From NCBI GenBank assembly GCA_050273025.1, contig CP158635.1, forward strand, positions 14,756,001 to 14,820,000: a DNA stretch of 64,000 nucleotides, given 5' to 3'. Below the pieces are notes generated by a model. That model saw only the letters and a program-made list of their open reading frames with translations. It was not told the DNA's origin and searched no databases. The position numbers were made by a program, and so were the translations under genes. This document shows, piece after piece, positions 16,041-64,000 of this stretch (position 1 is its first letter; each line of letters begins with the position of its first letter). This DNA is from Cenococcum geophilum. Its lineage: Eukaryota.

Positions 16041-16400
16041 TAGTGGTCTTAGTAATAAATGCATGCATATTTTAGCCAAATATTTATTTAATTCATAAAC
16101 GCGCCAAAAATATTCACGATTTGAATGCATATAATGAATATAGCTTAGGTAATCTCTATTCATTATATGCATTTAAATTATGAATATTTTTGGCGCGCTT
16201 ATAAATTAAATGAATATTTGGCTAAAATATACATGTATTTATTACTAAAACTAGTGATAAAAGTTTTAAAAAATCTATATATATATTCATAAGCTTATAA
16301 ATAATTTAATTTATAAGGGAAAAAAAATCAATGCATATTATTCGTTATGAATGAATATATTTATAAAAATGAATGAATAAAAATATTCTTAAGACCACTG
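16041..16400. mobile_element. hAT-type MITE inserted in Gypsy A2
   Basis: 8-bp TSD GTCCTAAC (16033-16040, 16401-16408); termini TAGTGGTCTTA...TAAGACCACTG; absent from the same site in copy A1 (about 6420). Confidence 0.92.
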
Positions 16401-31237: not shown

Positions 31238-34200
31238 TGTTACGGGACGTAGGCAGTGGCTATAAAGCGTATATATTCGAGGAGTCTACAAGACGTTACG
31301 CGATCGATCGTAAGGGTCGAGGGCGTAAGGAGGTAATATACCTACGCGTAGCTGATATAAGCTATACGCGAGGTATACGCGAGAGCACGGGGCTCTCCTA
31401 TAGAGGCCCCTGCGGTAGGGTTCTATAACACTACCCCCCCTCTTATAGAGGCGGAGCTCCGGTGACGCTGTGGTTACTATATATATATAAAAGAGACACT
31501 TAAGGTATAAAAAAGAAGAAAAAAGGGGGGTATTGCTGAAGGCTTAGAACAACGTTATGTAATAGGGCTTGGCATCTAAGAATCCGACTAATTAGATAAC
31601 TTTAACCGCCGGTTAAAGTTTCTGGATATTTTAACAATATTCTAGTTACGTAATCGTACTTTACCATAATCTAACGGCAATTTAACGGCAATTTACCTTT
31701 ACGTGGTAATATATAACGGTTTAACTCTATAAGGGCTCCTATAGAGGATTAGGTATAAAGTCTCTGCTTAGGCCCAGTTTCTATAGGTTTGCGTAGTAAA
31801 AGTTGCTAATTAGATCCTTTGCATTTTTAAAGTCTTCTTATAGTTACTATTCTGGCTAATCTATATCAAATCCTATATATATAGCTCTATAGTAGAGCCA
31901 TCGTCCTCTGCCTTTGCCAAAGTATTTAGAGTTAATAATTCGTTTAATAGTCCACTCCTCGTGGTTCTTGTCTTTATTCTTATCTCGGATTAGTACTAGT
32001 AGGGGTTTAGGCTATATCTGCCCTAGTAAGGGGTTGGGCTAATAAAGGTATAGTAGCTATAGGTAAAATACGGGCCATATCCCGCGGGTGGCTAGGGTAG
32101 GCGGGAGTTCTAGCTTATATACAGCTCCCCTATTAATAACTCATTTAATTAGATAGGGGCCAAGGTTCTTATAATTAAGTAACTTTATAGGCCTTTATGT
32201 AGAGATATTGCGTATATCTAGCTATACCTAGTCACCAACACGCATCTCTAGTGGTGGCGTTCTATAATAGTTGGCGAAGTAGGCCTACTTTACTTAAGCC
32301 TAGGCCATTTCTCCCTTATAGTAGTTAAGTAGATTTTTTATACGGTCTGCATGCTAGTTGGTAAGTAGCATCTTAAGGCGTTTTCTATATGGCAGTTTCT
32401 TATTAATAGGTTCTGGTGGCTCTATGCTAGATTAGGGGTGATAACCCTTATTCGCGAAGAATGGGGTAAGTCCTATAGTGGTTAAGACGTAGTTATTTAC
32501 TGCGAATTTACCTAGTAGGAGGTAATCTACCCAGTTATCTTAACTATAGGCGACTACCTATTGTAGGTACGCTTTTATACTGGTATTAGCGTTTTCTGGT
32601 TACCTAGCAGTTTTATAGTAGAAGGATATAGATATTTTAACGGAGATGCTAAGGCGTTGGCAGATTTGTCTCTATATATTAGAGTTAAATTATATACCTT
32701 AGTTGGACGTAATTGAGTTAGGTAGCCTATATAGTTAGTAGACTTTATAAAGGAAGGCGTTAGTAACGTCGCTAACGGCTATGCCTTTGGTTGGGATGTA
32801 GTGGCGCTCTTTTATAAGTTGGCATATTATTATAAGGATGTTCTTATAGGTACGGCCATATTATTTATAGGGTGGTAGGTTAATAACGAAATCTATAGCA
32901 ATATCTGCCTATTGTCGTATAGGTACTGGTAGAGGGTGTAGTAGTCCTTGGTACTTTGTATTAAAGGCCTTAGCGCGTTTATAACTATAGCAGGCGCCTA
33001 TAAAGCGTTTAACTAAGTCTATTATTTTTAGCTAGAAGTAGTATTGGCTAAGAAGCTTATAGGTTCCTCTTCTACCTAGGTAGCCGCTTAATTGGAGGTC
33101 GTAGGCCATTTAGATTAGTTGCCGTTGTAGATTTTTTAAGTTAGGGATAAATAGGCGGCCTCTATAATAGAGCCTATTCTCTTTTACTTCTAAGGCTGCT
33201 ATATTAATCTGGCCTAAGCTTTAGAGGTTAATAGGCAGCGTATAGGCGCTGGTAGTCTTTGCGGTAATAAGTTAATACAGTAATAGGTTAACAGAGGCGT
33301 TATATGCCGTAGTAATAAGTTTGTTAATTTTGGGAGGTAACTCTAGTTCTATAGTATAAAGCTAGGGTATAGTTGGCTCTATTGTAGGTAGTATGCCTAG
33401 GGCCAAATTTCGTGCTTTTAGGATCGTCTGTTATTAGAACTAATTGTGGGGGTTATTTTTAGACTAAGGAAGGTCTTGCGAGCGGCGTATTAGGCTATTA
33501 GGTTTAGTACCTTATACTCCTAGTCTATATATAATTTTAAAGTTAAAACCAGAGAGGAACTCGTTCTAACGTACTTAGTGTTAGTTTAGCTGCTTCGTGG
33601 TTATAAAGTACTTAAGATTATAATAGTCCGTAAGGACTTTAGTTAGCTAGTTAGGCTCTACTAAGGAGAGTTCTAGTTAGAATTCTTTAAACGCTTATAT
33701 AATTGCAAGAAGTTCTTTATTATAGATCTTATAGTTACACTCTTATAGTGTAAGCTTAGACGAGTAGAATGCGACTAGGTAAAGGAGACCGTCGTCACCT
33801 ATCTAGAAGAGAATGCCTGCGTTAATGTGGTCTGAGGAGTCGGTTTTAAGGTAGAGTTATTATTCTAGTGTAAAGTAAGCTAGGACAGGTGCTTTAGTAA
33901 AGGCGTTTTTAAGGTCTTAGAACGCCTTCTTATATTTAGGCGTCTAGATAAAGCGTAGGTGCGTTTTTCTTCCTTTTGTAGAAAGGCCCTTCGTTTGCAT
34001 TATTGCTGTAAGTAGTGCTACTACGCCTAAGAAGTTATATATAAATTTCCGATAGAAGTTGGCGAAACTAAGGAAGGCTTATACGTCCTTAATGCAGTTA
34101 GGGGCTTGCTATTTAGTAATTGTATATACCTTCTTAGGGTCTATATGGACACCCTTAGTAGTAATAATTAGTTTAAGGTATTTTACTTCTGTAACTAAGA

Positions 34201-37200
34201 ATTCGCATTTCTTTAAATTAATGTAAAGTCCTGCGTCCCTAAGGCGCTGTAAGACCTTTTAAACGTGTTTAGTATACTTAGAGGGGTTATTGTTATAAAT
34301 AAGTATATTATCTAGGTACGCAGAGTAGAAGTTGTTAAGGTAGTCCTATAAGGCGTTATTAATGTAGCTTTAGAAGATACCTGGGCCGTTATATATGCTA
34401 AAGGGTATAACGGTATATTTAAATTAGCCGAAGCGCGATGTAAATGCGGTTTTCTATTTATTACCTTCCCGTATTTAAAGATGGTTAAAGGCGGTAATAA
34501 TATTAAGCTTAGTATAAATTTTAGCTTGGCTAAGCCGCTTAAGGGTCTTACATATAAGCGGTACTGGGTATTAGTTTTTAATTATAATAGCGTTAAGTCC
34601 TTTATAGTTAACGTAGAATTAAATACCTCTTCCTAGCTTCTTAGCGAGAAGGATAGGGGCGGCTGCTAGTAACATACTAGGACGAATAAATCTTTTATTA
34701 AGGTGCTTGTTAATATACTTTTTTATAACTAGAAGCTTATCTTTTAATATTAGGTAGGGTCTCTTATAAGGTAGCATTTTTCCTTATTTAATATTAATGG
34801 TATAGTTATTAGGTTAATATAGGGGGAGTATATCTACACTCTTTTGTAAGTATATGTCGGTAAAGTTATAGTACCTCTTAGGAAGGAGCTTGCGGAGTTC
34901 TTTGTTGGTAAGTCCTTTTTTAAGCTTTATAAACTTCTTAAAGTCTAAAGGTAAAAGTCCGTAGAGTTCTGTAGGGGCGTCGTCTTCTAAAAGGTTAACT
35001 ATATCTATCCTATTACTATAGAGGACGTGGTTTTGTTCTTTATTAAGCTTATATAGTTATAATTAGGAAGCTATAGTAACGGTCTAGCCTTTCTTATATA
35101 CTATATAGTAGAAGGCTGGGGCACTTATATAGTAGTAGTTAGTCATAGGTGGGATAATAAGGGGTTCCTTAGGTTGATATCCTGGGGAGTAAATAGAGGC
35201 AGCTAGGCTATGCCCTAGGCAAGTCTCTCTACAGTATTTAGAGTTAAAGGTTGCTTCTCTCTTCTTTTAGTTAATGGCGGGGTTATATTATTTAAGCTAG
35301 TTTATTCTAAGGATAATAGGGTAGTTAGTAAGTGGTATTATATAGGCCTAGAGTTTTTCCTAGTGCCTATTTATATCTAGGTGGAGTTATACTATATGGG
35401 TAATCTTCTATGCGGTATAATTACTATTAGCGAGTTATAGAGCGCGGGCTTTAGTAAGGGGTAAGGTAGGTAGGTTATAAGTATATACAAATTAGGTATC
35501 TATAAATTTATTAGTAGCTCCGTAATTAATTATAGAACGGCTTTTATATTATTTTTTGGCAGTAGTTCCTATTATAGGTAAAACTATCTATTTCCGTTTA
35601 TTTATCTTTATAGAGTTATTTATTAAGTAAGCCGATATATAGATCCCTCCGTTATTAGGGTGTCCTAACCTATAACTTAGGGCTAGGACTTAGTGTTTTC
35701 CGTTTCCGTATCTAACTCTACCGCTATTACTACGTCTTTATCTTATATGGTAGTAGCGCGTAGTAATATATTTAGTGTTTAGGGTATTAGGTTAGGTATT
35801 AGGCGGCAACTACTAAACCTAGCTATTGGGCAGTTTAGGTTATCGCGATAATAGCCTTCTTAATAGTATCTATAGCAGCGTCTTAGTTTCTAAAGTAGCT
35901 CGCGCTCTCTATCTAGGAGTTTCTATAGGAAGGTTAGTATAGAGAAATCGATATTAGTTCCGGTAGTATTTAAGGTAATAGGTGTTGGTAGCTTAGTATA
36001 TATAGGTTTAGTAGGCCTAGGGGGCTTCTATAGAGAGGTCTTTAGATAAGGGTTAGCAGTAGTAATCTAATTTAGTTATTATTTAATCTTCTGTAGAGCT
36101 GCTACCATATTATAAACATTATTATAGTTGTAGCTGGCGGCTGCGTGACTAAGGCAATAAGTAACTTTTTTAAGGAGGTTCTTTTGGTCTTTAGTATCGT
36201 CTTAGGTAAGGGCTTTAGTATATTCCTAGAATTTAATATAGAATTTGTTAAATAATTTGGTAGGGCTTATCTTTAGGGCACGTAGTTTAGCTTAGTTGGT
36301 GGCTAGTAGGTTATAGTCGCGGTATATTAGGTTAAGATTATTAAGGACTTTTTAGTGGGACTGCCACTTCTAGGGGCTACTAGTCTCCTATTAGGCGAAG
36401 AGTCTATTAAATAGTGTACCCTTTATTCGCCCTATAATGTAGCTAATCTTAGTATCTTCTGTAGGAAAAAGGTAGGCGCTCTAAGTTAGTTTCTTGCGGA
36501 TTTATATCTTCTAGTAGCTGTATTCCTTACGGTCTCCCTAGAAGACTAGGGGATTAAGGTAGCGTATATTAGACCCTACGGTGGCAGTTTAGGTCTAATT
36601 ATTATAGCTTTTATTATCGCTGCTTTAGTAGGGGTTTCTGTTAAGTAAAGCTGCTTAGCGCTAGCCCTCTATTAAGTATCGAGTAGGTAAAGTTGCTAGG
36701 GGCGTAGAGACTTAGGTGGCGTTATATATAGTAGAGAGGTATCTAGCGTTATTACGAATATGCTCGTTAAACTAAGATTATAGGTATTTAATTATGCCTT
36801 CTCTTTTAATAACTATGGCAATTAGTATAATCTTAGCCTTCTTTAACTGTTAGACGTCGCGTTTAGACATACGGAGGTCGTTTTTAGTTTCTTAACGTGT
36901 GTTATTAGCGAGCGCCTTATAAGCTTATAGGTCTTAAATAATATCGCGATCTTAGGCAGTACACATCTCGGCTTATATAAGCTTTAAGTAATAGTTCTAT
37001 AGAAGGCGGTAGTATTTATTAGGGTCTTATGCTACCATTTTTATAAACGTTTTAGCGTCTTATATTTTAATTTTAATAGATAGTAGCCCTTCTGTTTACT
37101 TGTCCGTAGTTATATAGTTAATAAAAGATAAGATATTATTAGTGTCCGTCTCCTTAGGGGTTAAGGCTAGGGCTAATAAATTGAATTCTTTTAGGATTAA

Positions 37201-37603
37201 TTGGCGTTGTAGGTTAGATATAGGTATTGGATTGTTCTTTAGGTTTAATATAATAGCTAGTAAGGGATATTGTCTTACTATTATGGGTTCCTTAGAAGTA
37301 TAAAGTAAGGTAATTTATAAACACGCTACTTTTAGCAGCGCTTATAGTATTACAGAGACGTAGAATTGGTTGTAGGCTAAGCGTTAGTGGTAAAAAAGGG
37401 CGCAACGTAATGTTATGGGACGTGGGTAGTGGCTATAAAGCGTATGTATTCAAGGAGTCTACAAGACGTTACGCGATTAATCGTAAGGGTCGAGGGCGTA
37501 AGGAGGTAATATACCTACGCGTAGCTGACATAAGCTGTACGCAAGGTATACGCGAGAGCACGGGGCTCTCCTATAGAGGCCCCTGCGGTAGGGTTCCGTG
37601 ACA
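31238..37603 (-). mobile_element. Full-length RIPped Ty3/Gypsy chromovirus (family B, copy 1)
   Basis: 193-bp LTRs at 31238-31430 and 37411-37603; TSD ATAAA at 31233-31237 and 37604-37608; minus-strand PPT AAGAGGGGGGGTAG at 31431-31444. RT YLD(D) about 34307-34318, RNase H, integrase and chromodomain about 31770-31960. Confidence 0.97.
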
Positions 37604-37969
37604 ATAAAGGTGGAGAACTTATTAAACTTACTATAAGCGAGTCTCTTAACTTTAATCTAATATGTAAAAATTTGTTCCTTTATATATAACGATAATAAAA
37701 TATTCTTAATATAAAAGCAACTAGATAAAAATAAAATACTAAGCTAAGGAAATCCTAATTAATGCCTTAATTTTTAATAAATGCTAAAAGAGATAACCGT
37801 GGTTGCGAAAATCTTTCCTTATAAGAAATTTCTAATTTCTTAGGCTTCTTAGAATCTCTATCTCCGCCTTTCTTTAGTTTTGGTATTTTCCTAATATTTT
37901 TCTTACTAATTGCGCACTAGTATAAATAAGCATTCTCCGCTCTAGTTTAAGCCGGGAGGGTTATATAAA

Positions 37970-38325
37970 CTAGGCAATTATACGAGTTTGGGGATTATAC
38001 AAGCTCTGGGATCTTGCGAGCTAGAGGTTATATAAGCTGGGTAATTATGCGAGCTAGGAAATCGTGTAAGCTAAGAGATCGTGCGAGCTAGGTAATCGTG
38101 CGAGCTAGAAGATCTTACAAGCTAAAAGATCTTGCAAGCTAGAAGATCTTATAAGCTAGGCGATTTTATAAACTAGGTAATCGTGTAAGCTAGGAGATCT
38201 TATAAGCTATATGTGCGAGCTAGAAGATCTTATAAGCTAGGTAATTATATAAGCTAGGCGATCGTACGAGCTAGAAAATCGTACGTGTTAGGTAATTATG
38301 CGATTAAGGTAATTATGCGACCAAG
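37970..38325. repeat. Tandem array of about 17-bp units (GCGAGCTAGRMGATCGT-like)
   Basis: Roughly 20 contiguous degenerate copies; related motifs occur at 24390-24615. Confidence 0.85.
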
Positions 38326-55882: not shown

Positions 55883-56579
55883 GGGCATGTTCGGTTGCAG
55901 CTCCATATTGTAACGGAAATGGAGCTCAAATATGAATATGAGGGTGTTGTTCGGTAAATCTAACGACTTTTGAATATGGAGCCCCTCCATATCGGTAAGC
56001 GCGTCAAATTTGCAAGCTATACTATATACAGTAGTTGTAATAAGGTTCTTGGCACCGTTTTAATATGGAGCTTTAAGCTCCAGTTCTATATTCCATATTA
56101 ATCTGGAGCCCTCGCATACGCACTAAAGTAACGACTTCTAATCGCGATACTGCTGTCGCATTTACATGCCTTATATAATATTATTATTCTAACCTTCGTG
56201 GTTACAATAAGCTTATTTTTAAGGCGTTGTGGGTATTATTATAGCTCTACTATAGATCCTACGGGAGGCGGGTAAAGACGTAGGAAACGTTAATCGCAGA
56301 GAGGGCGTTGGCCGAGGAGGAGGCTCTATTGCTACACTAAAGTAGGGAGTCGCGATAGAGGCCTGGTGGCAGAGAGGGGCTCATTCGAATTTCTCACCGA
56401 CGTTAATTACGAAGTTAAATATGGAGCCTTATTCTGGAGCTGCAACCGAATAATTGACTTAATTATAGATTCAAATGAGCTATAGTGGTAGCCGCTACTA
56501 ATTACAAAACGGGCGACACTAAAAGGCGCACGGATTGAACAGATTATGATATGGAGGCGATTTGCAACCGAACGTGCCC
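55883..56579. mobile_element. PIF/Harbinger (Tourist-like) non-autonomous element
   Basis: 17-bp TIR GGGCATGTTCGGTTGCA / TGCAACCGAACGTGCCC (one mismatch); 3-bp TSD TTA at 55880-55882 and 56580-56582; repeated ATATGGAGC subterminal motifs. Confidence 0.9.
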
Positions 56580-56637
56580 TTAATCGTCGGCACTAGGCGA
56601 TTAACACTCTACGGTGTTTTCGGTCTTGGGAATAGCT

Positions 56638-56647
56638 AAAAAAAAAA
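56638..56647 (-). terminator. RNA polymerase III oligo(dT) terminator of the tRNA gene
   Basis: T10 on the minus strand, 12 nt downstream of the tRNA discriminator base. Confidence 0.75.
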
Positions 56648-56659
56648 TTGAAATGGAAA

Positions 56660-56778
56660 TGACCAATGCAGGGATGAACCTGCAATCTCTTGATTCGTAG
56701 TCAACTTGCTCAAGTTAGTGCGGAACAAGCCGGGGCAAGGTGAGAAACATACGCGCCTTGCCATTGGGCCAATTGGCC
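56660..56778 (-). tRNA. tRNA-Arg-ACG: tRNA-Arg(ACG) with a 48-nt non-canonical intron at 27/28 (exon 1 56778-56753, intron 56752-56705, exon 2 56704-56660)
   Basis: Joined exons GGCCAATTGGCCCAATGGCAAGGCGC|TTGACTACGAATCAAGAGATTGCAGGTTCATCCCTGCATTGGTCA fold into a cloverleaf: acceptor GGCCAAT/ATTGGTC, anticodon stem CTTGA/TCAAG with loop CTACGAA, T stem GCAGG/CCTGC. The T loop is 6 nt (TTCATC, G57 missing), so this copy may be defective or carry a sequencing error. Confidence 0.9.
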
Positions 56779-57177
56779 TGTAATCTGCTTATCTGCTGTC
56801 TTTTTTAAGATATATTCCATCTTATTTTTTCCCGCGGTATTTAAATAGAGGAGCTTTATAAGGGGTGGTCCTATAAGGACTTATAAGGGTATAAGGGATC
56901 GGATAGATTTAATAACTAATCCTTAAAGAGATTATATCTCCCTCTTCTGCGCTAAAGACTTTGCTTTTGGCTAAATCTTAACGCTACGCGAGGGGATCAC
57001 GTGCGTTCCGTTTATAGCACGCTTTCACCTTATAACTATCTTCCCTCTCTTTATAGTTCGCCCTTTAACCTAGATAAATATAAATTTAAGGCCTTAGTAG
57101 TAAGAGTAAATAGGAGAGACATAGTATATTTGACGCCTGTGTTAACATATATATTTAGCTGCGGCTCCTTCCCTATT

Positions 57178-59257
57178 TGTTAAAATGAGGTTATTAGGGC
57201 TAAAACTCTATGCATTGCTTATTTTCTATATAGGTAGTTGAAGAGATTTTAAGGAACTTTGACCGCCGGTCGAAGTTCTCTAATTGGTTAGATTCCTGCT
57301 AAGAGGTTCTCCCCAAGTCTTATCACGTGATATTATTGCGGGCTTGTTTTCCAACACCCTCCCTTAAGCTTAGTTAATAATACCGCTATATACACTATAT
57401 ATAGGGGTGTAGGATTGCTTAATAAGGGTTACTAAAGCTCCTCTAAGGTAGAATAAGTATCTAATAAGGAGTTACGCCCTCCCTAATATTTAAAGACAGC
57501 GCCTGCTCCGTAAAACATCTCTTAAAATTTTTAGCAGTACCTCCCTATAGGTATTCTATATTGCCTATAGAGCTCTAAAGGCCCTATAGCCTTACCCTAT
57601 GTCTCTCCTAAAGTATGTCTATCCTTCCTATTAGTATAAGCCCTCCCTAATGTCGTGGCCGTTAGATTTAGGTGGTAGGTTTAAGTAGTAGGTTAGTAGA
57701 TTAAGGTTAAGTTCTATTACTTATTTTAAGGCCTTAAGGCATTATTTAGCGCACTCTCTAAGGATTTACTAATTATATACTGATTTCCTATTAAGGCCTA
57801 GTGTAGTTAATTAAGTCTCTGCACTATTTAAAGGTATTTAAAGAAGGCGTAGAACTAAGGACCCATAAGAGGCTTAGTAAGGCCGTCGGCCGCTATATTA
57901 ATTAAAGCAATATATATAAGGTTAATCCTATTACTATTTATCTTATCTCTTACGTAGTGAAACTAGATGTTAATATGCTTTATTTAATTGTATTAAACTA
58001 GATTTTTAGCTAATGCTTTTATAGCTTAGTTATTGGTTTTAATTAAGATCTTAGTAAACTATTTACTCTAGTCTAGTACACCTAGTTTAGTAAGTAAAAG
58101 TTAAAGCCATATAGCCTCTTTTACTGCAGCCGTTAGAGCCGTATACTCTAATTAATATATTAATAGTAAAATAGTAGCTTATAGCTTTAATTTCTATAAA
58201 ATTAGTCCTTTATTTAATATAAATACAAAGCCCAATATAGAGCGTCTTATAGTTTTATCTTGTCCCTAGTTAGTATTACTAAAGCTAATTAGAGTAAGGT
58301 CTAGGTTCTTATCGCCTTTATAGGTAATTCCTCTATTAAGCGAGCCAGCCAGGTATTAAAGGATAAGTCTTACGGCCGTTATATAGGTAGAGGTAGGATT
58401 ATAGGCGAAACGGCTCACTATTAATACCGCAAAGGTAATATCTAGCCTTGTTTCTATTATAGGAAATATAACTAAACCAACCATACTCTAATATCTTCTA
58501 ACATTATCCTTACTAGTAGTTTTTTAATTAGCTATAAGCTTAATTAAGTGCTTTATAAGTATTAGTAAGGTATTAACCTTTTACAATTTAAAACGTTTAA
58601 GAGCTTTAATAAGGTAGGCTTACTATAAGAGTATAATCTTCTTCTTTATTTAATCTCTTATAACTATTATGCCTAAGTAAAAGCTTATTAGCCCAAGATC
58701 TATTATTTAGAAGGCTGCTTTAAGCTCTGCTTTTGCCTAATTAACTATTACTATATCCTTATAGATAATCTTAGTATTATTAACATAGGCAGAAATAATT
58801 AAACCTTTTTATCTTTTATTAGTGGCGAATATACTATAATCCGCGTATAGATAATAAAGTCTAAGTTTTTCTAGTAGAAACTTTAAGAGCGTCTTATACT
58901 AGATTTAAGGTAACTATTTTAGTCCGTAGAGGGCCTTCTTAAGGCAGCAGATTTTACCGGCTTCTTTATAGCCTTTTGGCATAATAACGTAGAGTTCTTA
59001 ATTAATTGGTCTATAGAGAAAGGTAGTTTTAATATCTATCTATTTAATTTTAAGGTTATAGTAGGTAGCAATCGCGAATAGAGCCCTAAAAGCTATAGGT
59101 TTTACTACCGCAGTAAAGGTCTAGTTATAGTCGACACCGTACTGCTATAGATATCCCTTAACAACCTATCTAGCTTTATAGCGGAGGACCTTGCCATTCT
59201 TTCCCTTTTTAACTTTAAATACCTATTTACTAGCGAGAGGCTTATAAGGAGGCTTAA
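57178..59257 (-). mobile_element. 3' part of a RIPped Ty1/Copia element (RT, RNase H, PPT, 3' LTR), interrupted by Gypsy B2
   Basis: LTR 57178-57356 (TGTTAAAA...TTCCAACA) with minus-strand PPT AAGGGAGGG at 57357-57365. Minus-strand motifs RYKAR(W)VV (about 59170), CLKKALYGLK (about 58930), AYV(DD) (about 58780) and AADGLTKP (about 57880). Confidence 0.92.
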
Positions 59258-62200
59258 TGTCACGGAACCCTACCGCAGGGGCCTCTATAGGAGAGCCCCG
59301 TGCTCTCGCGTATACCTCGCGTACAGCTTATATTAGCTACGCGTAGGTATATCACCTCCTTACGCCCTCGACCCTTACGATCGATCGCGCAACGTCTTGT
59401 AGACTCCTCGAATACATACGCTTTGTAGCCACTGCCCCCGTCCCATAATATTACGTTACGCCTTTTTTTACCACTAACGCTCAGCCTACGACCAATTCTA
59501 CGTCTTTGTAATACTATAGGCGCTACTAGAAGCAGCATGTCTACGAATTACCTCACTTTATACTTCTAAGGAACCTATAATAGTAAGATAATATCCTTTA
59601 CTAGCTATTATATTAAACCCAAAGAATAATCTAATACCTATATCTAACCTACAACGCCAATTAATCCTAGGAGAATTTAATTTATTAGCCCTAGCCTTAA
59701 CCCCTAAGGAGATGGACACTAATAATGTCTTATCTTTTATTAACTATATAACTACGGATAAGCAAACGGAAGGGCTATTACCTATTAAAATCGAAATACG
59801 AGACGCTAAGACGTTTGTAAAAATGGTAGCATGAGACCCTAATAAATACTACCGCCTTCTATAGAACTATTACCTAAAGCTTATATAAGCCGAGATGCGT
59901 ACTGCCTAAGATTGCGATATTATTTAAGACCTATAAGCTTATAAGGCGCTTACTAATAATATACGTTAAGAAACCGAAGACAACCTCTATATATCTAAAC
60001 GCGACGTCTAATAGTTAAAGAAGGCTAAGATTATACTAATTGCTATAGTCACTAAAAGAGAAGGCATAATTAAATACCTATAATCTTAGCTTAATAAGCA
60101 CATTTATAATAATACTAGATACCTCTCTACTACATATAACGCCACCTAAGTCTCTATACCCCTGGCAACTTTACCTACTTAACGCTTAATAGAGGGCTAG
60201 CGTTAAGCAGCTTTACTTAATAGGAACCCCTACTAAAGTAGTAATAATAAAAGCTATAATAATTGGACTTAAACTACTACCGTAGGGTCTAATATACGCT
60301 ACCCTAATCCCCTAGTTTTTTAGGGAGACCGTAAGGAATATAGCTACTAGAAGATATAAATTCGTAAGAAACTAACTTAGAGCGCCTACCTTTTTCCTAT
60401 AGAAGATATTAAGATTGGCTATATTATTAGGCGAATAAAGGGTATACTATTTAATAGACTCTTCGCCTAATAGGAGACTAGTAGCCCCTAGAAGTAGCAA
60501 TTCTACTAAAAAGTCCTTAATAATCTTAACCTAATATACCGCGACTATAACCTACTAGCTACCAACTAAGCTAAACTATATACCCTAAAGATAAGCCCTA
60601 CCAAATTATTTAATAAATTCTATATTAAATTCTAGGAATATACTAGAGCCCTCACCTAAGATAATACTAAAAACTAAGAGGACCTCCTTAAAAAAGTTAC
60701 TTATCGCCTTAGTTACGCAGCCGCCAGCTATAACTATAACAATGTTTATAATATAGTAGTAGCTCTATAGAAGATTAAACGACGACTAAATTAGATTACT
60801 ACTACTAATCTTTACCTAAAGACCTCTTTATAGAAGCCCTCTGGGCCTACTAAACCCATATATACTAAGCTACCAACGCCTACTACCTTAAGTACTACTA
60901 GAACTAATATTAATTTCTTTATACTAACCTTTCTATAGAAACTCCTAGATAGAGAACGCGAGCTACTCTAAAAACTAGGACGCTGCTATAAATGCCGTTA
61001 AGAAAGCTATTATTACGATAACCTAAACTACCTAATAGCTAGGTTTAGTAGCCGCCGCCTAATACCTAACTTAATACCCTAAACACTAAATACGTTGCTA
61101 CGCGCCACTACTATATAAGACGAAGACGTAGTAATAGTAGTAGAGTTGGATACAGAAATGGAAAACACTAAGTCCTAGCCCTAAGTTATGGGTTAGGACG
61201 CCTTAATAACGGAGGGATCTATATATTAGCTTGCTTAATAGATAACTCTATAAAGATAAATAGACGGAAATAGATAGTTTTACCTATAATAGAAACTACT
61301 GCTAAAAAATAATATAAAAGCCGTTCTATAATTAATTACGGAGCTACTAATAAATTTATAAATACCTAATTTATACGTACTTATAACCTACCTACCTTAC
61401 CCCTTATTAAAGCCCGCGCCCTATAACTTGCTAACAGTAATTATACTATATAGAAGATTACCTATATAGCATAACTCTACCTAGATATAAATAGGTACTA
61501 GGAAGAACTCTAAGCCTATATAACACCACTTACTAACTACCCTATTATCCTTAGAATAAACTAGCTTAAATAATATAACCCCGCCATTAACTAGAAGAAG
61601 AGAGAAGTAACCTTTAACTCTAAATACTATAGAGAGACTTACCTAGGGCATAGCCTAGCCGCCTCTATTTACTCCCTAGGATATTAACCTAAGGAACCCC
61701 TTATTACCCTATCTACGACTAACTACTACTATATAAGTGCCCTGGCCTTCTACTATATAGCATATAAGAAAGGCTAGACCGTTACTATAGCTTTTTAATT
61801 ATAACTATATAAGCTTAATAAAGAATAGGACTACGTCCTCTATAGTAATAGGATAGATATAGTTAACCTTTTAGAAAATAACGCCCCTACGGAACTCTAC
61901 GGACTTTTACCTTTAGACTTTAAGAAGTTTATAAAGCTTAAAAAAGGACTTACCAACGAAGAACTCCGTAAGCTCCTCCCTAAGAGGTACTATAACTTTA
62001 CCGATATATGCTTATAAAAGAGTGTAGATATACTCCCCCTATATTAACCTAATAACTATACTATTAATATTAAATAAGGAAAAATACTACCTTATAAGAG
62101 ACCCTACCTAATATTAAAAGATAAGCTTTTAGTTATAAAAAAGTATATTAACAAGCACCTTAATAAAGGATTTATTTGTCCTAGCATATCACTAGTAGCC

Positions 62201-64000
62201 GCCCCTATCCTTCTTACTAAGAAGCTAGGAGGAGGTATTTAATTCTGTGTTAACTATAGAGGACTTAACGCTATTACGATTAAAAACTAATACTTAGTAC
62301 CGCTTATATATAAGACCCTTAAGCGGCTTAGTTAAGCTAAAATCTATACTAAGCTTAATATTATTGCCGCCTTTAACTATCTTTAAATACGGGAAGGTGA
62401 TAAATAGAAAACCGTATTTGTATTGCGCTTTAGCTAATTTAAATATACCGTTATACCCTTTAGCGTATATAACGGCCCAGGTACCTTTTAAAGCTATATT
62501 AATAACACCTTATAGGACTACCTTAATAACTTCTACTCTGCGTACCTAGACGACATACTTATTTATAGTAATAACCCCTTTAAGCATACCAAATACGTTT
62601 AAAAGGTCCTATAGTGCCTTAGGGACGTAGGACTTTATATTAATTTAAAGAAATATAAATTCTTAGTTATAGAAGTAAAATACCTTAGACTAATTATTAC
62701 TACTAAGGGTGTCTGTATAGACCCTAAGAAGGTATATATAATTACCAAATAGTAAGCCCCTAACTGTATTAAGGACGTATAAGCCTTCCTTAGTTTTGCT
62801 AACTTCTATTAGAAATTTATATACAACGTCTTAGGCGTAGTAGCACTACTTATAGTAATAATGCGAACGAAGGGCCTTTCTGTAAAAGGAAGAAAAATGC
62901 ACCTACGCTTTACCTAGACGCCTAAATGCGAGAAGGCGTTCCAAGACCTTAAAAATGCCTTTACTAAAGCACCTGTTCTAGCTTACTTTATACTAGGATA
63001 ATAACTCTACCTTAAAACCAACTCCTTAGACTACGTTAATATAGGCATCCTTTCCTAGATAGGTAATAATAGCCTTTTTTACCTAGTTATATTCTACTTA
63101 TCTAAGCTTATACTATAAGAGTGTAACTATAAAATCTATAATAAAGAACTCCTTGCAATTATATAAGCGTTTAAAGAATTCTAACTAGAACTCTCCTTAG
63201 TAGAGCCTAACTAGCTAACTAAAGTCCTTACGGACTATTGTAATCTTAAGTACTTTATAACTATAAAGTAGCTAAACTAATGCTAAGTACGTTAAAATAA
63301 GTTCCTCTCTAGTTTTAACTTTAAAATTGTATATAGACTAGGAGTATAAGGTACTAAACCTAATAGCCTAATACGCCGCTTATAAGACCTTCCTTAGTCT
63401 AAAGATAACCCCTATAATTAGTTCTAATAACAGACAATCCTAAAAGCATAAAATTTAGCCCTAGGTATACTACCTATAATAGAGCTAACTATACCCTAGC
63501 TTTATATTACAGAACTAGAGTTACCTCCTAAAATTAATGAGCTTATTACTACGGCATATAACGCCTCTGTTAACCTATTACTATATTAACTTATTACCGC
63601 AAAGACCGCTGGCGCCTATACGCTACCTACTAACCTCTAAAGCTTAGGCTAGATTAATATAGCAGCCTTAGAAGTAAAAGAGAATAGGCTCTATTATAGA
63701 GGCCGCCTATTTATCCCTAACTTAGAAAATCTATAACGGCAACTAATCTAAATAGCCTACGATCTTTAATTAAGCGGCCACTTAGGTAAAAAAGGAACCT
63801 ACAAGCTTCTTAGCCAATACTACTTCTAGCCAAAAATAATAGACTTAGTTAAACGCTTTATAGGCGCCTGCTACGGTTATAAGCGCGTTAAGGCCTTTAA
63901 TACAAAGTACTAAGGACTACTGCACCCTCTACTAGTACCTATATAACGATAGGCAGATATCGCCATAGATTTCGTTATTAACCTACTACCCTATAAACGA
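59258..64000 (+). mobile_element. RIPped Ty3/Gypsy chromovirus (family B, copy 2), truncated by the window end
   Basis: 5' LTR 59258-59450; sequence is the reverse complement of about 32860-37603. RT YLDD intact at 62543-62554; integrase Zn finger about 63770-63880 and start of the integrase core about 63955. Confidence 0.96.

Follow-up and report, generated by a model that had tools for sequence, protein, structure and literature searches.

Whether a nuclear tRNA gene can be interrupted by an mRNA-type, spliceosomal intron, and whether such an intron is removed at the RNA level, is the question raised by a tRNA-Arg(ACG) locus lying in a 64-kb window (the whole stretch of DNA that was analysed). 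In the available portion of one account, eukaryotic tRNA introns are placed only between N37 and N38 (PMC10275265); in the available portion of another, spliceosomal, tRNA and XBP1 introns are treated as three unrelated types, of which the spliceosomal ones occur in Pol II transcripts (PMC12530127). The gene described here has an insert at neither the position nor with the signals that these accounts would lead one to expect of a tRNA intron, and we examine below its boundaries, its occurrence in relatives, the RNA that covers it and the explanations that can be offered for it.

A split tRNA-Arg(ACG) gene in a repeat-rich setting

The gene occupies 56778-56660 on the minus strand, as segments of 26 nt, 48 nt and 45 nt. 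Its parts and immediate surroundings are listed here, where L002 and L004 denote the same locus in close relatives, X5 is a DNA run, and variable columns are those among the window, L002 and L004.

56753..56778, minus strand: exon 1, 26 nt, comprising the acceptor 5' strand, the D-arm with A box, nucleotide 26 and the first base of the anticodon stem (Sprinzl 1-27), from the ARAGORN cloverleaf after scripted intron removal; 0/26 columns variable.
56705..56752, minus strand: putative spliceosomal-type intron, 48 nt, with donor GTATGT at 56752-56747, branch motif CACTAAC at 56720-56714 and acceptor AG at 56706-56705.
56660..56704, minus strand: exon 2, 45 nt, comprising the remaining anticodon arm (anticodon ACG at 56698-56696), variable loop, T-arm, acceptor 3' strand and discriminator A; 0/44 ungapped columns variable.
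56673..56678, minus strand: shortened 6-nt T-loop TTCATC within exon 2, where there are two gap columns relative to L002 and L004.
56638..56647, minus strand: T10 run, Pol III terminator-like, about 12-13 nt past the tRNA 3' end and kept in L002 (11 T) and L004 (10 T).
56593..57141, no strand: low-copy island with the tRNA gene, between high-copy RIP-like repeat remnants, delimited by X5 depth, RIP indices and ~93% identity to L002 and L004.

When the 48 nt were cut out by script, ARAGORN called a tRNA-Arg(ACG) of 71 nt with an acceptor stem of 7 bp that includes one G-U pair, a D-stem of 3 bp and an anticodon stem of 5 bp. The anticodon loop, CTACGAA, is without interruption in the window gene, and the intron site is Sprinzl 27/28, a numbering that follows from a D-loop lacking position 17. 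The edges of the insert are fixed because the bases flanking it differ at each junction, the last base of exon 1 being C against G for the last base of the insert, and the first base of the insert being G against T for the first base of exon 2. An original prediction, made from the letters of the window, had stated that removing 56752-56705 restores the cloverleaf, that the boundaries of this insert cannot slide, that its site is the non-canonical 27/28, and that its 48 nt begin with GTATGT, carry CACTAAC about 10 nt before the end and finish in AG; the ARAGORN call, the differing junction bases, the Sprinzl numbering of the ARAGORN structure, and the coordinates and letters themselves agree with it on each of these points.

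Fungal 5' splice sites have the consensus GTATGT/GTAAGT, and the donor, the branch motif and the acceptor AG of the window insert all fit a fungal U2-type intron, with the branch A of CACTAAC 10 nt from the intron 3' end. With the boundaries fixed, random 48-mers having the base composition of the window would carry the exact donor, branch motif and AG at a frequency of ~1.2e-7, and the loose consensus GTRHGT, CTRAY and AG was found in 0/200,000. A similarity search of the 64-kb window returned no second copy of the intron, and the low-copy island is also unique there.

The surroundings of the gene went unremarked in the original prediction. The window has a G+C content of 29-39%, holds many diverged repeats and contains no ORF of at least 100 aa, even when read from stop to stop. 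Read against the usual thresholds, the dinucleotide indices of the window are strongly RIP-like, at 1.69 for TpA/ApT and 0.47 for (CpA+TpG)/(ApC+GpT); the corresponding values in the island are 1.21 and 0.98. The island (56593-57141) has a depth of 12-29 in DNA run X5, and DNA and RNA runs alike cover the flanking repeats at depths of hundreds to thousands. As a whole, the window is a repeat graveyard in which a single small island is low-copy. T or A stands in the window at positions where other copies of the repeats in public runs show C or G.

Several further features of the window were recorded. At ~56580, downstream of the island, the window is no longer alignable to L002 and L004, which stay alike for a short way, and the break points to a repeat insertion or deletion polymorphism that would adjoin the tRNA gene. 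A near-perfect palindrome at 16046-16251 has two 102-nt arms, 89% complementary and 2 nt apart, and probably represents a foldback element or a repeat that forms hairpins. Two miRNA hairpin models match it below threshold, at 38 bits where their gathering scores are 81 and 89. At 38047-38313 there is a tandem array with a 17-nt period, made up of about 15 or more diverged units similar to GATCGTGCGAGCTAGRA. A 4.7-kb inverted repeat, 91% complementary, is formed by 32864-37607 and 59254-63997, and a direct duplication of ~10.2 kb relates about 5.7-13.6 kb to 16-23.8 kb at 72-91% identity; both are presumably diverged transposon copies.

The locus in close relatives and a similar gene in another fungus

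A metagenome scan, for which the query joined the 3' part of exon 1 to the anticodon-loop part across a gap of 25-55 nt, gave four loci (L001-L004), of which L003 was a GC-rich, coding-like chance match and was excluded from all counts. The two copies from close relatives, L002 and L004, each keep the 48-nt intron with two substitutions, none of them in GTATGT, CACTAAC or AG, so that, with the window and run X5, the intron is present in 4/4 DNA sources of the locus. Across the window, L002 and L004, the variable columns amount to 0/70 ungapped columns in the exons, 4/48 in the intron (none in donor, branch or acceptor), 27/378 in the upstream flank and 3/69 in the downstream flank; set against one another, the exons with 0/70 and the intron plus flanks with 34/495 differ at a one-sided Fisher P=0.0096, a value obtained from three close copies. 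By this comparison of sequences the exons are shown to be under purifying selection. The four variable intron sites would miss the 15 signal positions by chance with a probability of ~0.2, which with three copies is not significant. Of the expectation that the splice signals are kept while the intron interior diverges, the pattern itself is therefore seen, four interior sites varying with the signals intact in 3/3 copies, but the sparing of the signals does not reach significance.

The same scripted removal of the intron gives tRNA-Arg(ACG) in 4/4 cases, namely the window, L002, L004 and L001. The last of these belongs to a different fungus, with unrelated flanks and an acceptor stem that differs by compensated pairs. 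Its tRNA-Arg(ACG) gene contains an intron of 46 nt, GTAAGT...GTTAAC...AG, at 25/26, 2 nt upstream of the window site, with GTTAAC 9-10 nt before the intron end; once it is cut out, the mature D-arm/anticodon-stem junction is the same. The spliced form is a 72-nt tRNA with a canonical T-loop and both A and B boxes, and the gene is accompanied by a TATA-like element upstream and a T9 run 3 nt past its end. The interiors of the window and L001 introns show no significant likeness, 711/2000 shuffles having scored equally well; sliding of one intron and two independent gains are both compatible with these sequences, which cannot decide between them. Also on L001, at 703-870 on the plus strand, an open frame runs off the locus and ends in a dinucleotide-binding motif (...YDVIVIGGGHAGTEA...); this frame and the intron-bearing tRNA-Arg gene are divergent, with the frame ~210 nt upstream, and we take it to resemble the N-terminus of MTO1/GidA-type tRNA modification enzymes.

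That standard tRNA finders could miss genes of this kind had also been anticipated, and both programs used here proved blind to the untouched locus: ARAGORN reported no tRNA in the untouched window, and Rfam reported no tRNA there at the gathering score or at E<=10, with unspliced DNA as the only query. Applied to the unspliced DNA of the other loci, the Rfam tRNA model gave 28.2 bits for L004, against a gathering score of 29, and a partial match of 22.8 bits for L001. Two matches produced in the course of these searches were rejected. One, returned by ARAGORN with the intron option and a lowered threshold, is a tRNA-Lys whose anticodon loop would hold a 41-nt 'intron'; it is spurious, having mismatched stems and ignoring the intact ACG loop. 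The other is the 28.2-bit Rfam match of L004 taken as an alternative fold, in which the 3' half of the intron poses as the 5' half of the tRNA with non-standard pairs and a sub-threshold score. The stretch concerned, L004:438-510, consists of the intron 3' half and exon 2 and scores like a whole tRNA, so that annotation pipelines could mis-call it; we judge it an artefact. Because ARAGORN and Rfam both miss the window gene, fungal tRNA gene counts may be underestimates.

The restored cloverleaf has a further property, which was overlooked in the original prediction, in that its 3-bp D-stem is accompanied by a T-loop, TTCATC, of 6 nt, one base under the standard 7, and its B box is broken. The window gene otherwise has the acceptor, D and anticodon arms, an A box and, downstream, the T10 run at 56647-56638. 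The B-box consensus is GGTTCGANNCC. This motif and a standard 7-nt T-loop are absent in the window and L002, and present in L004, X5 and L001; in the L004/X5 allele the A box, the B box and the T10 run are all complete. The T-loop lengths of the individual sources are as follows.

L004: 7 nt, canonical.
DNA run X5: 7 nt, canonical (13/13 depth, two contigs).
Window: 6 nt.
X16 RNA contig: 6 nt.
L002: 5 nt.

The lengths of 7, 6 and 5 nt among close relatives have the form of nested deletions at one spot, both exons being otherwise invariant. In the window allele the lost T-loop base breaks the B box and takes away position 57 or 58, and because of this the window copy is probably impaired or becoming a pseudogene, the L004/X5 allele being intact. 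The broken B box likewise argues that the window allele would be a poor Pol III template.

RNA across the locus and the explanations for the insert

Two contigs from RNA libraries of different studies touch the intron. The first, a metatranscriptome contig of 173 nt in X16 (depth 3.97), matches 56552-56704 with 0 mismatches over 153 nt and two inserted letters, its match ending with the base that opens exon 2. Bin depths in X16 of 3.32 for 56654-56714 and 1.17 for 56715-56775 equal 3.97 x 51/61 and 3.97 x 18/61, respectively, and the remaining 18 letters of the contig are for this reason placed, by depth arithmetic, on the last 18 bases of exon 1. An earlier AG lies only 6 nt past the branch A, and the break at 56704 is consistent with the choice of the distal one. 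The second contig, of 156 nt in X15 (depth 7.2), agrees with 56887-56753 at every base, a match that ends with the final base of exon 1; its 16 leftover letters do not fit the intron, and the side on which they lie was deduced from the strand convention, checked on two other minus-strand records and their loose ends. Contigs of DNA run X5 are continuous across both junctions. The RNA-library contigs that touch the intron therefore break in 2/2 cases at the predicted splice sites, 56753 and 56704, and 4/4 DNA sources retain the intron. The spliced form is read from these break points and from the depth arithmetic, the exon-exon joint itself, with sides of 18 and 16 letters, being absent from the joints table; the depths are low (~7 for X15, ~4 for X16), and a contig may combine reads from more than one molecule. 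Raw RNA-seq run X21 (organism B, ~12% of the run) has zero depth over 56593-57141, which is neutral either way. These observations suggest that a tRNA-shaped RNA is here cut and joined by the mRNA splicing machinery, and we consider it likely, with confidence well above even, that this tRNA-Arg(ACG) gene does contain a spliceosomal-type intron, kept in DNA and apparently removed in RNA.

The nature of the transcript bears on this reading. The RNA contigs extend 109 nt upstream (to 56887) and 108 nt downstream (to 56552) of the tRNA, and that of X16 reads through the T10 run, a span greater than that of any normal Pol III pre-tRNA; the spliced RNA is therefore most simply taken as part of a longer transcript, which probably arises from Pol II or by read-through. 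RNA libraries of this type do not capture mature tRNAs, and so the long contigs say nothing against a Pol III product. The interpretation offered in the original prediction accordingly holds in one part, as the signals in 3/3 copies, the invariant exons, the L001 intron, the RNA breaks and the lack of a bulge-helix-bulge all favour a spliceosomal-type intron, but the other part, a Pol III pre-tRNA as the substrate, stays a conjecture, as the RNA contigs fit longer transcripts and the window allele has a broken B box.

The best explanation, and in our judgement a probable one, is that a filamentous (soil/root-associated) fungus carries a nuclear tRNA-Arg(ACG) gene with a genuine U2-type GT-AG intron between 27/28. 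The spliceosome would engage a transcript over the locus at GTATGT, at the ACTAAC branch site and at the AG lying 10 nt further on; the insert would leave as a lariat, by which the D-arm/anticodon-stem junction would be rebuilt, and RNase P and RNase Z could then release the tRNA. Within this explanation we infer the dependence on the spliceosome, the polymerase that makes the precursor, and a working tRNA product.

The same contigs could come from a tRNA-shaped module, an intron-bearing pair of exons within a long non-coding or transposon-driven Pol II transcript, with no tRNA made from the locus; in the lineage of the window the locus would then have ceased to be, or never have been, a functioning Pol III tRNA gene. 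Such an account would be in keeping with RNA contigs that run more than 100 nt past the tRNA on each side and through T10, with the broken B box of the window and L002, and with the high representation in RNA libraries of the repeats of the surrounding graveyard. It sits poorly, however, with exons that are variable in 0/70 columns when flanks and intron vary in 34/495, with an L004/X5 allele in which A box, B box and T10 are complete, and with an L001 gene that has all normal tRNA gene features, from the TATA-like element upstream to the T9 run 3 nt downstream; moreover, libraries that do not capture mature tRNAs could show only the long transcripts. We regard this account as unlikely, though not negligibly so. 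Still less probable is a presence/absence polymorphism of the intron, whereby the apparently spliced contigs would stem from an intronless allele, either as RNA or as contaminating DNA. DNA can occur in RNA libraries, and an intronless allele would carry the flanking sequence of the locus just as the contigs do; yet all four DNA sources (window, L002, L004 and X5) hold the intron, the X16 contig is identical to the window allele over 153 nt with the 6-nt T-loop included, and X15 and X16 cover the locus only in the vicinity of the tRNA, with zero depth over most of the remaining island, which is not the pattern of a uniform carry-over of DNA.

Two further accounts concern the insert itself. Were the gene a dead tRNA pseudogene into which an unrelated, intron-like 48-nt sequence had inserted, the shortened T-loops of the window and L002 and the repeat-rich, RIP-like surroundings would be understandable. 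Against this stand a chance of ~1e-7 for the signals at fixed boundaries, boundaries that cannot slide and lack a target-site duplication, conserved exons, RNA contigs that break at both junctions, and an independent lineage (L001) in which a GT-AG intron restores the same tRNA, and we consider the account very unlikely. Cleavage of a non-canonical tRNA intron of the bulge-helix-bulge type by the tRNA splicing endonuclease has a basis in other lineages, for which the available portions of two sources describe tRNA introns at non-canonical positions (PMC3978253, PMC4033280). No bulge-helix-bulge (two 3-nt bulges, 4-bp helix) was found in minimum-free-energy and centroid folds, however, a 10-bp helix enclosing the 3' junction and an open loop the 5' junction, and L001 has no fold in common with the window. 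The yeast SEN complex, in the part of PMC10275265 available, reaches its sites on either side of 37/38 by measuring from the mature domain, and GT, ACTAAC and AG would be left unexplained, so that endonuclease cleavage seems scarcely credible here. A conserved intron structure or intron-exon pairing was also considered and rejected, as the window fold has z = -2.2 and the L001 fold z = -0.2 with no similar fold between them, the L001 and L004 stretches folded for comparison being a few bases out of register with the exact precursor.

Relation to known introns and implications

A genuine U2-type intron in a tRNA gene, the reading that we favour, has its closest counterparts in the mRNA-type introns of fungal snRNA genes. 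According to the portion of PMC5855946 available, these occur in U6 of Schizosaccharomyces pombe and others and in U2, U5 and U1 of Rhodotorula hasegawae, the reports cited there being Tani and Ohshima (1989, 1991) and Takahashi et al. (1993, 1996). As in those genes, a short GT-AG intron with a branch site interrupts a mature, small, structured RNA, and its removal restores a conserved fold; U6 is in addition a Pol III transcript, and so provides a precedent for the action of the spliceosome on Pol III RNA. Unlike the snRNAs, the tRNA host is not part of the spliceosome, and consequently reverse splicing near the active site, the origin favoured for snRNA introns, is not obviously applicable. 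The same portion of PMC5855946 cites spliceosomal introns in ascomycete rRNA genes (Bhattacharya et al. 2000), which are likewise introns of the spliceosomal type in a stable-RNA gene not normally transcribed by Pol II, but which sit in a host RNA made by Pol I; its list of non-coding RNAs with spliceosomal introns, as far as available, does not contain tRNA.

The resemblance to known tRNA introns is more limited. Introns removed by SEN/TSEN are also short, also lie in nuclear tRNA genes, and must also be removed for a functional anticodon arm, but in the available part of PMC10275265 they are situated at 37/38 without GT, branch or AG signals, whereas here the site is 27/28 (25/26 in L001), the spliceosomal signals are complete and the anticodon loop is intact. 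Bulge-helix-bulge introns of archaea and some algae, together with split and permuted tRNA genes, share with the present case a tRNA intron outside 37/38 and invisibility to standard finders (PMC3978253, PMC4033280, each in the portion available); they differ in that the folds here contain no such motif and the signals are spliceosomal. In full-text searches of non-subscription literature, no description of spliceosomal introns in tRNA genes was found. Against this literature, the tRNA host is an addition to the known spliceosomal introns in small non-coding RNA genes.

A tRNA gene with a spliceosomal intron that is apparently lost at the RNA level crosses the division into spliceosomal, tRNA and XBP1/HAC1 introns as drawn in the available portions of PMC12530127 and PMC10275265, and models that tie spliceosomal introns in small RNAs to the presence of the host RNA in the spliceosome would not cover tRNAs. 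The alleles with T-loops of 7, 6 and 5 nt constitute a natural series in which functional and decaying genes may be compared. More generally, some filamentous fungi may keep working tRNA genes whose precursors need the spliceosome before they can fold, forming a hidden class missed by standard finders, a proposal that we put forward tentatively and rate at a little below an even chance. If it is true, this class of intron would be old enough to sit at 25/26 and at 27/28 in two lineages within genes for the same mature tRNA-Arg(ACG), and if the precursor is a Pol III transcript, it would follow U6 as a second natural instance in which Pol III RNA is a substrate of the spliceosome. The maturation of a tRNA could then depend on nuclear splicing ahead of export, and the supply of tRNA would be coupled to the capacity of the cell for mRNA splicing.
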